In this document: positions 22,812 through 29,325 of the stretch, in pieces
Numbering within the stretch: the stretch's first letter is position 1
Layout: each line of letters opens with the position of its first letter
Origin: a virus
DNA: 43,420 bases
Reading direction: 5' to 3' (one strand)
Virus genome (UHGV): UHGV-1685692
The notes under the pieces: generated by a model
Databases searched by the model: none
The model's input: the letters and a program-made list of their open reading frames with translations, nothing else
Told to the model about the DNA's origin: nothing
Translations under genes and position numbers: made by a program

Positions 22812-23393
22812 ATGGCACCTATACCTTATGGGGTTTACAGCCAGGCTGACGGTGTATCGCCATTTCTGAAAGTTACTTTAACGAACTCTCAGTACCAGGT
22901 TACCGGATATATCAGCCAGGGGGCAGCAATGAACATGGCCCAGAATTGGGAAGCGCCGTTTACCGGTATGTCCATGGGGTCTGTTGCTGGTGCTTTCAGT
23001 GGTTTTGCGCAGGTTGGTACTGAAACAACGTCGGTGGCCCGTTGGAACAGCTTAATGGTTTGGGAGGGGGGAACACCGCCGACTTTCACGCTGCCAGTAA
23101 CTTTCATCGCTTTGTTTGACCCATTCACTGAGGTTTCAGGAGCTATCGCCGCATTGTCAGCGATGATTAGCCCGGAACTTAAAGATGCCAGCATTGGTGG
23201 TCGAATCCCGGAGCGTGTGACGCTAAACATTGGTCGCCGGATCAACATCATTGATGTCGCTATCCAGGACATAAGTTTCGATCTCGATGCGCCCAGGGAC
23301 AGCAATGGGCATTTCCTGAAAAACACCGTCAACCTCCAGTTGACCGGTTCTTCGATATATAACAGCTCCGATATTGTTCGGGCGTTCCAGTAA
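22812..23393 (+). CDS. phage tail structural protein (tube or tube-associated candidate)
   Basis: 193 aa (about 21 kDa) downstream of the sheath gene; no diagnostic motif. Confidence 0.4.
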   Translation: MAPIPYGVYSQADGVSPFLKVTLTNSQYQVTGYISQGAAMNMAQNWEAPFTGMSMGSVAGAFSGFAQVGTETTSVARWNSLMVWEGGTPPTFTLPVTFIALFDPFTEVSGAIAALSAMISPELKDASIGGRIPERVTLNIGRRINIIDVAIQDISFDLDAPRDSNGHFLKNTVNLQLTGSSIYNSSDIVRAFQ

Positions 23394-23404
23394 AAGGATT
23401 TTAT

Positions 23405-23914
23405 ATGGGGCACAATAACACTAAGGGAAACCGTAAATTTATTAAGGGCCGCTATACTGCCAACGCGGCCAAAGGCGAACGACTGGTATCTTCTGAATTC
23501 CAGCTCACTTTTGCAGGCCATGAAGATATCAGCGTACTGGTTCGCACGTCGCAAATTCCTGAAATGACCCGCGAGGATGTGGAGGACTATGGTCCGAATG
23601 GTGTGAAGTTCAACCAGCACGGTCCAATTCGAAACTCTGGGGAAATCCAGGTCCAGTGCGTGGAGACTATCGAAGGCGATATTCTTCAGTTCATTAAAGA
23701 TCGCATTGCGGCGAAGGACTATGTTGATATCACGATGGCTGCGACCCCTGAATCCAAATCTTCCGGGGTTAACGCTGTGACAAAAGCTGCTACAACAATT
23801 GAAATGTTGGACTGCAAAATCTACAGTGATGCAATCGACTTTAGTACCGAAGATGTGACTGCCGCTGTGCGCCCGTCACTTCGTATCGTCTACAACTGGA
23901 TTGAGTGGGATTAA
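23405..23914 (+). CDS. tail tube-like protein candidate
   Basis: 169 aa, a typical tube-protein size; C-terminal ...RIVYNWIEWD is loosely reminiscent of the T4 gp19 C-terminus; weak evidence. Confidence 0.35.
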   Translation: MGHNNTKGNRKFIKGRYTANAAKGERLVSSEFQLTFAGHEDISVLVRTSQIPEMTREDVEDYGPNGVKFNQHGPIRNSGEIQVQCVETIEGDILQFIKDRIAAKDYVDITMAATPESKSSGVNAVTKAATTIEMLDCKIYSDAIDFSTEDVTAAVRPSLRIVYNWIEWD

Positions 23915-23932
23915 GAGTCATCCCTTGTATTT

Positions 23933-23957
23933 TAAAGCTCCTTCGGGAGCTTTTTTG
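23933..23957 (+). terminator. rho-independent terminator ending the structural operon
   Basis: aaagctcc-ttcg-ggagcttt followed by tttt. Confidence 0.55.
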
Positions 23958-23997
23958 TGCTTAAATCATGTCAATATAGCGAAATTTTGAGCATATT

Positions 23998-24294
23998 ATG
24001 GAAATTGATTTTTCATACTCTCCTGAAACGATAGAACGAAGATTCGAAATAATTGGATGCAAAACTATTTCCGAGGAGCATTATTGGATTCTCTATGATG
24101 CCAATACATGGTTATGTGCCTTAGCAGAATGTCAGCCATCGTTATGTGTAGGGGAGGGGGCTTTTCGACATAAGGTGCTGGCTACACTTGAAGTGAACAC
24201 GTTACGATATTGGTGTGTAGAAATACTTAGTGATAACAAAGAATTGCACTTATTATTGCTGAATAAGTGTGCTTCTCTGCGCAGAAAAGCATGA
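23998..24294 (+). CDS. hypothetical small protein in the AT-rich island (convergent with the DUF3800-like cassette)
   Basis: 98-aa ORF, no clear RBS, AT-rich codon usage; a plus-strand hairpin with T-run lies at about 24420-24460. Confidence 0.3.
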   Translation: MEIDFSYSPETIERRFEIIGCKTISEEHYWILYDANTWLCALAECQPSLCVGEGAFRHKVLATLEVNTLRYWCVEILSDNKELHLLLLNKCASLRRKA

Positions 24295-24459
24295 AAAAAC
24301 CCAACCGCTCTCCCGGAATTATCAGAAGAATATGTGCGGAAAGTTATAGCTAGCTATTGAAAAGCTAAAGTAGATCGGTTAGATTTGCATTACTCATCTA
24401 CCATGTGTAGAAAGAGCGATCGAACCCGATACATAGCAATATGTGTCGGGTTCAGCTTT

Positions 24460-24924
24460 TTATGTCCCAAGTGCTCTTTTTCTGCTTTGTTTGAGTGTTC
24501 TGATTTTACTGTCATAGGTTACAACATAGGCTGTTTTGAGAAGCCAATAGTCTCTACGTGCGGATAGCACAACAACGTAGTTTTCACACTCATTCCAGAT
24601 TACCCACTCTTCAGTTGGTCCTCGTCTTTCAGACCAACATGATATATCGCAATGGTTATAATTCCTTATCATGTGCGCGATCCAGCGAATTCGCTTGCAC
24701 CGTTCAAGATCGGGTATACGTTCTTCTTCTATTTTTCCCTCTGATACTAAATGCCAAAATCCGAATTCTTTCCCATTATATTCCGGTGAATAACGTAATC
24801 GAACAGGGAGACCCTTAAACGTTATATTAGATATTAAAATATCTTCTCTAACAACATCATATACATCGTCTATATACTCTTGCCAACTTCCATTGAAGTA
24901 CAATAAATCTGGCATTTGAAGCAT
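24460..24924 (-). CDS. hypothetical protein, second gene of the AT-rich cassette (translationally coupled)
   Basis: ATG at 24922-24924 overlaps the upstream stop (TGATG) and is preceded by GGGAGG; about 154 aa; contains RIRWIAH / RNYNH segments (possible R-x4-6-H, weak); no confident domain. Confidence 0.5.
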   Translation of the reverse strand: MLQMPDLLYFNGSWQEYIDDVYDVVREDILISNITFKGLPVRLRYSPEYNGKEFGFWHLVSEGKIEEERIPDLERCKRIRWIAHMIRNYNHCDISCWSERRGPTEEWVIWNECENYVVVLSARRDYWLLKTAYVVTYDSKIRTLKQSRKRALGT

Positions 24925-25628
24925 CAGCGAGCCTCCCACACGAAAATATTAAATTTACTTTCTGTTGGAAGAGTACTTTTTAGTAACTCCCTGTTTGTAT
25001 GTGATTTTATTCTGTTTATGACTTGGATTTTTCCCGCGTTGCTATTCATTCCTCGATGAACGTAGCCTAACGCGCCAATGAAAAGATCCGTTAGCTGCAA
25101 TTGCTGCACTTCATGAGATCGTATATGTTGAATTCTGTTTATCGACTCATGATTGTAATCATAGCGATCATTGTGAAGAACCCCTCTTAATTTCTCAATT
25201 TTTTCAATACCTAAAGTATCTTTTATATCTAGGTAGATATTGTATGTGTTGTTACTTTCTATTATGTTTTTTAAGACATAAAAAAACATCTTATAATAGA
25301 AAGTATTATGATCTTGATGGAATCGAGCATGGTCCAGTTGCTCTTTATCAGGAACAACAACACCTCTAAAGCGCAATGCAGGGTTGCTGAAGAAGTAATC
25401 TACGACATCTAAGTAAAATTCAACTTTGGACGCAGATACTTTAGTCCACTTGATTTCGAAATCAGGTTTTAGATTGTGTTTTAATTTTAATTCCTTGATG
25501 TCTCTAGCAATTTTTTTTGTGATAGTGCCGGGACACCAAAGCGCACCCAATACCATGACTTTATTATGATCATTTAGTAGGTGACAGGATTCATCGCAGA
25601 ATACATTAAATGTTCTTCGGTTCAACAT
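24924..25628 (-). CDS. DUF3800-like protein (N-terminal DES motif), first gene of the AT-rich cassette
   Basis: 234 aa; FNVFCDES near the N-terminus and QLQLTDLFIGALGY near the C-terminus fit the DUF3800 pattern as I recall it; AGTGGAG RBS; visibly AT-rich relative to flanking phage genes. Confidence 0.55.
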   Translation of the reverse strand: MLNRRTFNVFCDESCHLLNDHNKVMVLGALWCPGTITKKIARDIKELKLKHNLKPDFEIKWTKVSASKVEFYLDVVDYFFSNPALRFRGVVVPDKEQLDHARFHQDHNTFYYKMFFYVLKNIIESNNTYNIYLDIKDTLGIEKIEKLRGVLHNDRYDYNHESINRIQHIRSHEVQQLQLTDLFIGALGYVHRGMNSNAGKIQVINRIKSHTNRELLKSTLPTESKFNIFVWEAR

Positions 25629-25764
25629 GTTAACTCCACTTATTGTTAGGTAGAATTGTCCGTTAGTTGTTTATTAATTGCAATAATGGGGCGTCCAGTT
25701 TTGGCAACAGTGTCCTCTTACCAGGACACCTATGAGTTTGCCTCATGGCAAACTAGAGGTGTTG

Positions 25765-25781
25765 AAAGTATGCATGGTTAT
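25765..25781. promoter_or_regulatory. degenerate C1-operator-like sequence in the promoter region of the AT-rich cassette
   Basis: Minus strand reads ATTGCTCTAATTATAAC: first 11 nt identical to the operator consensus, 12/17 overall; located just after the repL stop. Confidence 0.25.
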
Positions 25782-25796
25782 AATTAGAGCAATTCA

Positions 25797-26642
25797 TTAC
25801 CCTCTGAATCCTGCCGGTATACCCCATTGTTCGTTATCTTTATTTTTGGCTAAAACCGCATTAAGAGCTTCGTTTACCGTCATGCAATGCGGCAGATTAT
25901 CGAAGTTTGATACCCCGCCAATATCAGGAGAACGCTTGTTCTTCAGGTAAGCATATTTCCGCGCTGCCGCCTCTACTTTCTGCTTGAACTCATGTTTTTG
26001 TGCGCGTTTTTTGGATAACCGCAGATTGTCAGCCTTTGCTTTTGCCTCAGCGATCCATGAAGTCAATTTTTTGAGTCTGGTCGTTCCGGCACCGCCGGAA
26101 ACTGATCTTTTTGTTTTTTTAACTTGTGACTTCTTATTCTTTATTGCCACGTCATCCTGACAGGGGGAGGGGGTATCATTTTGACATGGGGGTGTGGATA
26201 AAAAATTAAATAAAGCCAATGTCTTAGCGAGAACAGCTTTAACCTTGGTTGCCGCTGAAGAGATCTTTAATTTGCTTTCAATCAGCGCATTTTTGGCTTG
26301 TTGTGCGAAGGCCAAAAAGGATGGCGTAAACCGGTACAGGTTAGCGCGACGTTCACGGTGATCGCCGATAACAATCTCTACAGACAGAATTCCTTTGTTT
26401 ACAGCTTCACGGAATGCACGAACGACGGTTGATTGGCTATAACCAGTTTCTGCCGCGATCAGGCGGTGGGGCTTGTGAATGAAGTATTCACTGGTTGTTG
26501 CCGCGAGATTTGCACATTGCGACAGGATATGCCCGGCGCTACGGGATAGACCGGAGTGTGTTACAAAGAAGGCCAATTCATAGCCAGAAAAAGTAAAATC
26601 GCTCATCGTTATACAGCTCAGGAAAGTGACTTTAGCCAGCAT
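25797..26642 (-). CDS. repL: lytic replicon initiator RepL-like protein
   Basis: 281 aa (the length I recall for P1 RepL); helix-turn-helix-like segment TGYSQSTVVRAFREAVNKGIL; basic C-terminal region; immediately downstream of kilA under a C1 operator. Confidence 0.55.
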   Translation of the reverse strand: MLAKVTFLSCITMSDFTFSGYELAFFVTHSGLSRSAGHILSQCANLAATTSEYFIHKPHRLIAAETGYSQSTVVRAFREAVNKGILSVEIVIGDHRERRANLYRFTPSFLAFAQQAKNALIESKLKISSAATKVKAVLAKTLALFNFLSTPPCQNDTPSPCQDDVAIKNKKSQVKKTKRSVSGGAGTTRLKKLTSWIAEAKAKADNLRLSKKRAQKHEFKQKVEAAARKYAYLKNKRSPDIGGVSNFDNLPHCMTVNEALNAVLAKNKDNEQWGIPAGFRG

Positions 26643-26671
26643 TACAATGCTGGTGGTTCTTACTACGTCTG

Positions 26672-27472
26672 TTAGCGCGTTGCCGCGACAGGTACCAGCA
26701 CACCAGCATCAAGCAATCGCTTCATCAGCCACTGCTGACCTTTGCCGGTTATACGAGTCGTGAAAGAAATCCTGCTTCCATTGCTTGTATCGATCACGGT
26801 TTCTTTAAGGGTGAAATACCCACGGGATATGTATTCTTGTTTGGGGACGTTCCTGCGTTCACCGGTTGCGATCAGAATTCCGTTATCACGCAACCAGGTG
26901 AAGAGATAGTTTTGGCCCAGGCCGAGCACTTTGGCATAGTTGCCGATTAGAACCCCGCTGGCGGTAGCAACGCGTTCGGCGAATTCGACTTTAGGTGCAT
27001 CCATCAGCATTTTTTGCTCCAGCCGTTGCTTTTGCTCTGCCAGGTCAGCAGCCAAACGGAGAGCTTCTGGGAGGCTCTTCGGAATAGCAGGTTGTAATCT
27101 TCCGGCTCGATAGTCGATAAATGTCTGGTTTACCTTCAGCCGAAACGCGGGAGAAATCCAGCCTGCGTACTCCACTGCGAGCAATTCATGGGCAAAAGTG
27201 CCGCCGCCACGGCCTTCGAACGAAACTATGCAATTCTGCATAGTTTCTTTTTCAAGCTCTTCGATGAGCTGTTTGGCTGACAGCGTTCTTAGCCATTGAG
27301 CTGGCGCTTTATGGGCACCGAGTCCGCTCGCTCTGTGTAGAGCATTAAGGTTGTAACGGCCAGCGCGGTCGGTCGTAATTTCAACACCACAAATAACGGG
27401 CAGAGTGGTTGAAGGATCGACATTTTGATGAAGGTTTGATATATTCATATCCGCATTGAATGTTTGTTGCAT
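26672..27472 (-). CDS. kilA: KilA (KilA-N DNA-binding domain plus Bro/KilA-C-type C-terminal domain)
   Basis: 266 aa; N-terminal KilA-N-like region; the C-terminal half is paralogous to the C-terminal half of the downstream Ant-like protein (LPEALRLAA(D/E)LAEQK...KV(E/D)FA(E/D)RV, GKGQQWL); C1 operator upstream. Confidence 0.7.
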   Translation of the reverse strand: MQQTFNADMNISNLHQNVDPSTTLPVICGVEITTDRAGRYNLNALHRASGLGAHKAPAQWLRTLSAKQLIEELEKETMQNCIVSFEGRGGGTFAHELLAVEYAGWISPAFRLKVNQTFIDYRAGRLQPAIPKSLPEALRLAADLAEQKQRLEQKMLMDAPKVEFAERVATASGVLIGNYAKVLGLGQNYLFTWLRDNGILIATGERRNVPKQEYISRGYFTLKETVIDTSNGSRISFTTRITGKGQQWLMKRLLDAGVLVPVAATR

Positions 27473-28899: not shown

Positions 28900-29200
28900 G
28901 TTACGGCCTCATTCGTAGGTTTAACAACCTGCGCCCCGCTGCTAAACGGGTGGCAGGACGTGACGGGGTTAGCAGACTGGCACGAATGAAACCAGCAGGC
29001 CGAAGCCTCCCCATCACGCCCCACCATAATTCGGGCGTAACGTGGTTTTACGGACACAAAAATACCGCAATATCGGATATCTGCGGTTGTCCGCATTCGT
29101 ATTCAGGCTGCTAAACCCGGTCGCAGAATTTGCTACGACGGCGGAACTATAAGCCTGAACGATTAAAAGGTCAATATGATGCGAAAAGATAGCATTTGCG
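28900..29200 (-). ncRNA. region expected to encode a c4-like antisense immunity RNA (boundaries not determined)
   Basis: Non-coding leader between the C1 operator and icd/ant; motif gctgctaaac occurs at 28932 and 29107 and ttagcaga at 28960, as expected for c4 and its target repeats; positional inference only. Confidence 0.25.
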
Positions 29201-29212
29201 ACTTAAAAATAC

Positions 29213-29229
29213 AAATTTATTAGAGCATT
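29213..29229. promoter_or_regulatory. C1-repressor operator (Op51-like) in the divergent region between the immunity operon and the secreted-protein gene
   Basis: AAATTTATTAGAGCATT is the reverse complement of the operator with one mismatch. Confidence 0.6.
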
Positions 29230-29325
29230 AATTGTATAACAAATACACAAATGGATCTAATAACCTCTTTTTTTTAAAGGCGAAAATATGTACCCTAAAT
29301 GGGTTATAAGGCAGGTGAGGTTATA

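Follow-up and report, generated by a model that had tools for sequence, protein, structure and literature searches.

The rlfA-rlfB pair of phage P1, a horizontally acquired two-gene accessory cassette and candidate nuclease-based anti-phage defence module

INTRODUCTION

The anticodon nuclease (ACNase) PrrC is a restriction-linked enzyme encoded in the prr locus, in which the genes are arranged in the order hsdM-hsdS-prrC-hsdR. Nucleases with a DUF3800 domain have been linked to retron type VII (PMC7736814) and to Cas12a2/Cas12a3 loci (PMC10910872; PMC13594972). A further set of systems, the PDCs of PADLOC, has been nominated by 'guilt-by-embedding' in known systems, and these are unvalidated candidates (PMC12881386). 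Here we describe the gene pair rlfA-rlfB in a stretch of viral DNA of 43,420 nucleotides (nt), the UHGV virus genome UHGV-1685692, which is referred to as the window and from whose first letter all coordinates are counted. In sequence comparison the whole stretch is phage P1, at 100% identity. The two genes were reportedly annotated in the P1 genome in 2004, and since then they have stood under a placeholder 'replication-linked' label in one of the most used model phages. The pair is also catalogued in PADLOC-DB as the candidate PDC-M04. Since the genes and the candidate-system label already exist, this is not the discovery of an unknown locus, and the 'undescribed system' proposed for positions 23960-25730 by a reading of the sequence alone (the sequence-only reading) cannot be upheld in that form. 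The same reading proposed a candidate defence or abortive-infection module, and this is the interpretation favoured by comparative genomics, based on the PDC-M04 matches, the embedding in type I restriction-modification (R-M) operons and the cargo sites described below.

RESULTS AND DISCUSSION

A low-GC cassette in a variable slot of P1

Positions 23900-25800 are 100% identical to AF234172/NC_005856 (record positions 51568-53468, reverse strand) and ~97% identical to P7, confirming the proposal in the sequence-only reading that this is the rlfA/rlfB slot of P1. The low-GC interval contains rlfA (DUF3800, 234 aa), rlfB (154 aa) and the convergent pmgF. The GC content of 23960-25730 is 0.373, compared to 0.472 for the whole window (standard deviation 0.028 among segments of equal size). 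This is the lowest value for its length in the 43 kb; the minimum begins at 23911, and only 0.2% of equal-size segments are as low, so that the sharp drop in composition noticed earlier is borne out by the GC profile. Homology to P1-like phages without the cassette stops at 23956, past the bplB terminator, and resumes at ~25780, within the C1 operator Op55. In the comparison of P1 with RCS47, homology restarts at the operator core ATTAGAGCAAT. The bplB terminator hairpin (23934-23953, plus strand), found in a terminator scan and overlaid by a partial Rfam match, forms the left edge of the variable cargo slot. The right edge is formed by the operator, Orlf/Op55 (ATTGCTCTAATTATAAC; 25777-25793, minus strand, annotated in AF234172), a backbone element that abuts the repL stop codon. 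With these edges, the interval outlined from the sequence alone is essentially the cargo slot, and its proposed foreign origin is supported.

Among P1-like phage-plasmids this slot is already recognised as variable and low in GC (PMC9603915; PMC6906374), whereas a paper on phage-plasmid recombination was found to contain no specific statement about it. Other, unrelated cargo occupies it in RCS47 and SJ46, for which a PADLOC scan gave no match, and rlfA/rlfB are missing from 11 of 19 P1-like phage records, all of which keep repL. The rlfA-rlfB pair is a horizontally acquired two-gene accessory cassette with a predicted promoter of its own, equivalent to PDC-M04, in the variable slot that extends from the bplB terminator to the C1 operator at the end of repL.

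Both genes are on the minus strand, with rlfA at 24924-25628 and rlfB, counted from its ATG, at 24460-24924. The junction sequence, gtgtGGGAGGctcgcTGATGctt (also written GGGAGGctcgcTGATG), contains both the ribosome-binding site GGGAGG and the 1-nt stop/start overlap TGATG from which a tightly coupled pair of 234 and 154 aa had been proposed, and rlfB is translationally coupled to rlfA. A sigma-70-like promoter, PrlfA (TTGCAA, 17 nt, GACAAT; 25655-25683, minus strand), is annotated as predicted in AF234172. Upstream of rlfA homologues, an element of the form TTGCA-N17-GAnAAT/GAAACT is conserved at the same spacing in enterobacterial loci of unrelated context, and PrlfA is predicted to serve as the cassette's own promoter. 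Op55 is located ~95 bp upstream of PrlfA and does not overlap with it. It is noted that a conserved TTG (TTGAAC, Leu-Asn) appears to be the start codon of the enterobacterial rlfA homologues. This TTG directly follows an ATG in P1 (25620-25628), where either codon may be the true start.

RlfA and RlfB form a strict pair in many phyla

Both proteins match the PADLOC profiles of PDC-M04 from end to end, RlfA to PDLC04353 (component A, E 1e-95) and RlfB to PDLC04355 (component B, E 1.3e-51). The genes are adjacent and on the same strand with a 1-nt overlap, as the PDC-M04 model requires. RlfB relatives fall into ~1800 clusters at 50% identity and are present in 477 of 185,579 species-representative genomes. 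The phyla represented include Proteobacteria, Nitrospirota, Planctomycetota, Chloroflexota, Cyanobacteria, Acidobacteriota, Verrucomicrobiota and Saccharibacteria. Eighty genome loci were fetched, and the counts of genome loci given here refer to them. RlfA is encoded directly upstream of RlfB, on the same strand and overlapping or abutting, in 97 of 98 non-P1 loci (79/80 from genomes and 18/18 from non-identical viral contigs), and the sole unpaired genome locus is cut by a contig end. The same pairing was seen in three look-ups begun from RlfA. Viral carriers are few, with the pair on only 32 of 2.9 million viral contigs. At ≥95% identity the cassette occurs in 121 of 5426 complete E. coli genomes, nearly always on P1-like plasmids of 70-130 kb.

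Some unusual open reading frames (ORFs) were met among the homologues. A 286-aa ORF in one of the viral loci, an IMG/VR contig (L124, 5695-6555), joins RlfA residues 1-114 to RlfB residues 15-153; it was not accepted as a fusion indicating interaction, as it is apparently the product of an internal deletion. In two alphaproteobacterial genomes (L055:6818-9955 and L076:4440-9956) the RlfA domain lies at the C-terminal end of ORFs of 1045 and 1838 aa, probably an artefact of ORF extension in high-GC DNA. In P0195 and P0237, two representatives of greater length, the N-terminus is extended by low-complexity sequence.

RlfA has an RNase H2-like fold with an intact set of carboxylates

RlfA scores 54.2 bits with the Pfam DUF3800 model (PF12686), above the curated gathering score of 21, and the match extends over positions 1-148 of the 149 in the profile. 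Its fold is RNase H2-like, in agreement with the RNase H-like fold of DUF3800. The DES and QLxDLFIG segments from which a DUF3800-like protein had been recognised are present as D12-E13-S14 near the N-terminus and Q178-L-T-D181-LFIG near the C-terminus, and both are invariant in homologues. The carboxylates D12, E13, D134 and D181, together with D137, are invariant in 28 homologues and ≥94% conserved in 98. The candidate catalytic residues are D12, E13, D134 (with D137) and the D181 of Q178-x-x-D181, which would make up an intact D-E-D-D site. Because these conserved carboxylates are of the RNase H2 type, RlfA is probably an active nuclease. No helix-turn-helix, ribbon-helix-helix or AbrB DNA-binding domain was found in RlfA, and neither RlfA nor RlfB matched an ATPase or PrrC profile.

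RlfB is a possible BECR-type RNase

The structural model of RlfB is confident (pLDDT 92) and has an alpha/beta fold, with an N-terminal helix, short helices bearing the invariant residues and a four-stranded antiparallel sheet. Among 245 sequences of the family, H58 is 100% conserved, R69, R75 and R78 are conserved at ≥97%, and F56, W81 and W97 are near-invariant (≥95%). The conservation of H58, R69, R75 and R78 suggests an active or binding site, and the pattern would suit a metal-independent RNase or a phosphate-binding pocket. No family match was obtained for RlfB in Pfam (E up to 10, with 25 homologues), in NCBIfam or among PDB sequences. Foldseek of RlfB against the PDB gave nothing significant. 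The best structural matches of RlfB are type II toxins and colicin/CdiA RNases; they are weak and were not confirmed by Foldseek. From the model, RlfB is possibly a BECR-type (RelE/colicin D-like) RNase.

A HEPN-like RNase signature (R-x4-6-H) had been suggested for the 154-aa partner. It is rejected here, since homologues do not keep H84, the His of the sole R-x-H arrangement, and RlfB folds as alpha/beta rather than all-alpha. RlfB homologues are labelled 'replication protein' (PHROG 16230, RefSeq P1/P7) or 'oxidoreductase' (NCBI). Both labels look like propagated misannotations because no Pfam or NCBIfam model backs either name. Many RefSeq E. coli plasmids lack any listing of the RlfB homologue under the match.

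Homologous pairs are embedded in R-M operons, islands and prophages

Type I R-M genes are found within 6 kb of the pair, always on the same strand, in 39 of the 80 genome loci. The recurrent order is hsdM-hsdS-rlfA-rlfB-hsdR, and the hsdS stop codon overlaps the rlfA start in at least 12 loci. In Pfam and PADLOC scans of 120 neighbouring ORFs, HsdM, HsdS and HsdR were by far the commonest neighbours. This embedding, found here independently, agrees with the 'guilt-by-embedding' logic by which PDCs are nominated. The recurrent order could also be explained if RlfA and RlfB were auxiliary subunits of type I R-M enzymes, which would modulate restriction, process DNA ends or alleviate restriction, with the P1 copy as an orphaned remnant. 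However, hsd genes are missing from the surroundings of half of the pairs, among them those in P1, in prophages and at the selC and ssrA islands, and yet both genes are intact and the catalytic residues invariant. The intact copies kept in 121 E. coli genomes, nearly always on P1-like plasmids, also argue against a remnant, and we regard the auxiliary-subunit explanation as very improbable.

The enterobacterial copies occupy several kinds of site. Some are located directly after tRNA-Sec (selC) or tmRNA (ssrA islands), and some are flanked by RhuM and SymE, with one locus near P4-like satellite genes. Other copies immediately follow the integrase of a prophage, separate the replication module of a lambdoid prophage from its Q module, or are placed at a prophage end. 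The enterobacterial sites (selC/tmRNA, prophage, satellite) are classic cargo and defence positions. In Citrobacter and related genomes (L084-L088, ~7988-11400), the pair is placed at selC islands between a RhuM-family gene and a SymE toxin gene. A candidate with a RhuM domain, PDC-S05, has been reported to be protective against T4, T5 and T7 (PMC12881386).

One Bacteroidota metagenome contig (L126, 3183-14617) carries the pair within a dense immune island. The genes there encode, in order, an HsdM/S fusion, a 502-aa reverse transcriptase (RT), DUF3800, RlfB, HsdR, a 325-aa unknown protein, a Piwi-domain protein (prokaryotic Argonaute, pAgo) and a helicase. The RT next to DUF3800 in this contig recalls retron type VII. 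A retron-like reading through RT linkage was set aside, as an RT is adjacent in this locus only among the loci examined.

These contexts, together with the protein features, also bear on a role in toxin-antitoxin (TA) addiction, in which RlfB would be a RelE-like RNase toxin and RlfA an enzymatic antitoxin, and P1, the islands and the R-M operons would be stabilised by post-segregational killing. The order of an upstream partner and a downstream toxin with a 1-nt stop/start overlap fits such a system, as do the weak matches of RlfB to type II toxins and colicin/CdiA RNases, the residence of the pair on plasmids, islands and prophages, and SymE as a recurrent toxin neighbour. However, the would-be antitoxin is an enzyme of 234 aa whose nuclease site is fully conserved and which lacks a DNA-binding antitoxin domain, and the co-transcribed position between hsdS and hsdR is one typical of defence accessories. 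P1 already has a TA system, phd-doc. We consider addiction as the function unlikely, although TA function and defence are not mutually exclusive.

Position and expression of the pair in P1

In P1, a C1 operator and the C1-controlled kilA-repL operon are situated immediately upstream of the cassette. During P1vir infection rlfA and rlfB are transcribed and grouped with the lytic replication genes; rlfB is transcribed by 10 min and listed among the early lytic replication factors (bioRxiv 10.64898/2025.12.28.696737). In CRISPR interference (CRISPRi) none of the three genes rlfA, rlfB and pmgF proved essential to plaque formation by P1 (PMC10695390).

These observations could indicate an accessory of lytic replication, with RlfA generating a primer from the transcript or R-loop formed at oriL within repL and RlfB acting as its cofactor. 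The location directly downstream of repL/oriL, the kilA-repL operon and Op55, the RNase H2-like fold of RlfA, the behaviour of the pair with lytic replication genes in P1vir infection and the name 'replication protein' given to RlfB by PHROG and NCBI are all in line with this. On the other side, that name is positional, with no family match behind it; the genes are dispensable by CRISPRi and absent from more than half of the repL-retaining P1-like records; and beyond P1 the pair is spread over 477 species genomes, with neither RepL nor KilA homologues at the 96 non-P1 loci examined. The replication explanation is the one weakened most, because the pair is non-essential, patchy in P1-like phages and without RepL linkage elsewhere, and we judge it improbable.

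The same location and timing would also be compatible with counter-defence or competition between phages, in which an early nuclease pair would destroy host immune nucleic acids (retron multicopy single-stranded DNA, RNA:DNA hybrids, guide RNAs) or host RNAs. The pair is in the C1-controlled early region beside Op55, the early transcription of rlfB fits, and an RNase H-like activity could in principle attack RNA-DNA hybrid immune molecules. P1 is known to encode the anti-restriction functions DarA and DarB. In contrast to what would be expected of an anti-defence gene, the majority of the homologues are on chromosomes and share transcription with type I R-M genes of the host. Viral carriers are rare. 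The cassette also has a conserved predicted promoter of its own, which the operator does not overlap. We give this explanation little weight.

Proposed function

With moderate confidence, we regard rlfAB as most likely a nuclease-based defence cassette directed against phages or other mobile elements, of the abortive-infection or toxin-effector kind. In the proposed mechanism, whose trigger, substrates and expression state in the lysogen we infer along with the defence activity itself and the RNase activity of RlfB, RlfA would recognise or cut an RNA-containing duplex made by the invader, such as the RNA:DNA hybrids arising from replication or transcription. RlfB would cleave RNA (tRNA or mRNA), or else gate RlfA. 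In the R-M-embedded copies the pair could act, by analogy to PrrC, as a second line when restriction fails, and in P1 it would shield the lysogen, or the lytic cycle of P1, from competing phages.

A more specific form of this mechanism is possible, and we put it forward tentatively. It is an abortive infection system of two enzymes, in which RlfA would sense RNA:DNA hybrids or other replication intermediates of the invader and license a RelE/colicin D-like RlfB to stop translation. Such a system might serve as a fail-safe of type I restriction in many phyla, analogous to PrrC but unrelated to it, and might have been captured by P1 to exclude rivals.

Several points weigh against a defence function. 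The literature searched contains no anti-phage or toxic phenotype of rlfAB, and no publication, phenotype or mechanism for PDC-M04. Other PDC candidates failed when tested (PMC12409345). P1 has no type I R-M genes, and a mechanism coupled to R-M therefore cannot apply in P1 as such. Lastly, the location of the P1 cassette behind the C1-controlled operon and the grouping of its genes with lytic replication genes in P1vir infection imply that it may be mainly a lytic-phase cassette and not one that protects the lysogen.

If the defence function is correct, a role would be given to a widespread family, which could then be studied with ease in E. coli and P1. The pair would also provide the first stand-alone context for a DUF3800 RNase H-like nuclease, which would inform the retron VII and Cas12a2/a3 loci, and the misannotations of RlfB as 'replication protein' or 'oxidoreductase' would be corrected. 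P1-like phage-plasmids bring the cassette to ~2% of complete E. coli genomes, so that it could then shape phage susceptibility in clinical and veterinary isolates.

Neighbouring and local features

The 98-aa ORF noticed opposite the pair is real. It is pmgF (23998-24294, plus strand, in the ORF list), assigned to PHROG 7349 of unknown function. Its inclusion in the cassette does not stand: pmgF was rejected as a third component since it has no homologue beside any non-P1 pair and its N-terminus is related to a different backbone gene, and it is a slot neighbour outside the RlfAB module. A protein of 198-210 aa and unknown function, encoded at the same position in SJ46 and RCS47 (L083:6151-6783 and L082:6187-6783), has an N-terminus that is 43% identical to the first 65 residues of PmgF, and PmgF may be a shortened or diverged form of it. 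In SJ46, another slot gene (L083:7274-7789, minus strand) is annotated as 'replication protein RepL'. It encodes an outer-membrane beta-barrel of the Ail/Lom family (Pfam E 1e-22 to 2e-24) and was misannotated by position.

A terminator-like hairpin with a 14-bp stem (24422-24453, no strand assigned) was found by the terminator scan directly after the rlfB stop codon. With its T-run on the plus strand, it looks like a terminator common to the convergent rlfAB and pmgF transcripts. Two adjacent hairpins, AGTTTGCC/GGCAAACT and GTGTCCT/AGGACAC (25709-25754, minus strand), are located in the repL-rlfA intergenic transcript between Op55 and PrlfA. The RNA of this region (25629-25796, minus strand, 168 nt) folds with a minimum free energy of -42.4 kcal/mol, z = -3.5 relative to shuffled sequences. 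The upstream regions of other rlfA homologues do not share these hairpins, which are specific to the P1 copy. Being well folded and yet unconserved elsewhere, they are treated as a local regulatory structure, which may be an insulator or terminator between repL and rlfA.

Two other low-GC regions of the window were seen. The second low-GC island (<0.40, 29051-30450) corresponds to the superimmunity genes simA-simB-simC of P1 with the c4 promoter region (record ~46.9-48.3 kb), also a reported variable region of P1-like elements. A third stretch, 17951-18700 (<0.40 in 500-nt segments), presumably lies near parB and gene 23, judging from the P1 map position.

Comparison with known systems

The rlfA/rlfB genes of P1, named rapA/rapB in P7 and described as 'possibly associated with lytic replication', are the two genes of the window, the P1 sequence being identical, and the replication label rests on position only. 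A repL-linked lytic replication module is not what was found, considering the lack of RepL linkage, the patchy presence and the CRISPRi result. PDC-M04 is a catalogue entry, and the P1 copy sits in no defence system. Compared to type II TA systems, the gene order and overlap of rlfA-rlfB fit, whereas the small DNA-binding antitoxin is replaced by an enzyme of 234 aa. The likeness of RlfB to the RelE/ParE/YafQ/HigB toxins and to the colicin D/CdiA-CT tRNases (BECR) is a weak structural similarity with no sequence-profile match. RlfB differs from them by an extra N-terminal region of ~50 aa and by a partner that is an enzyme, not a small antitoxin.

RlfA shares with the DUF3800 proteins of retron VII and the TPR-DUF3800 proteins of Cas12a2/a3 loci the RNase H2-like DUF3800 domain, the N-terminal DE motif and the linkage to immune systems. 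It has a canonical QxxD and a DEDD site, whereas the retron VII DUF3800 proteins lack the Q and have DEED (PMC7736814). RlfA also has no TPR domain and no CRISPR neighbour, and the RlfB partner is unique to the RlfA subfamily. With regard to retrons, there is no RT ORF and no Rfam-recognised noncoding RNA in the P1 slot. The structured RNAs associated with DUF3800 (Rfam DUF3800-I to -XI) gave no match in 23300-26800 at E up to 10, and no DUF3800-associated noncoding RNA reached the gathering score in 7 homologous loci.

The combination of domains in RlfAB matches no validated system. In operon position it resembles PrrC and, more broadly, restriction-linked ORFs set within type I R-M operons, as many rlfAB homologues are found between hsdS and hsdR. 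The differences are that rlfAB encodes two proteins, one of them RNase H-like, with no ABC-ATPase or ACNase domain, and that the P1 copy has no hsd neighbours and would have to work without a type I R-M partner. By analogy with PrrC, the shared position and the RNase activity predicted for the partner suggest a latent back-up of restriction that would act through RNA cleavage.

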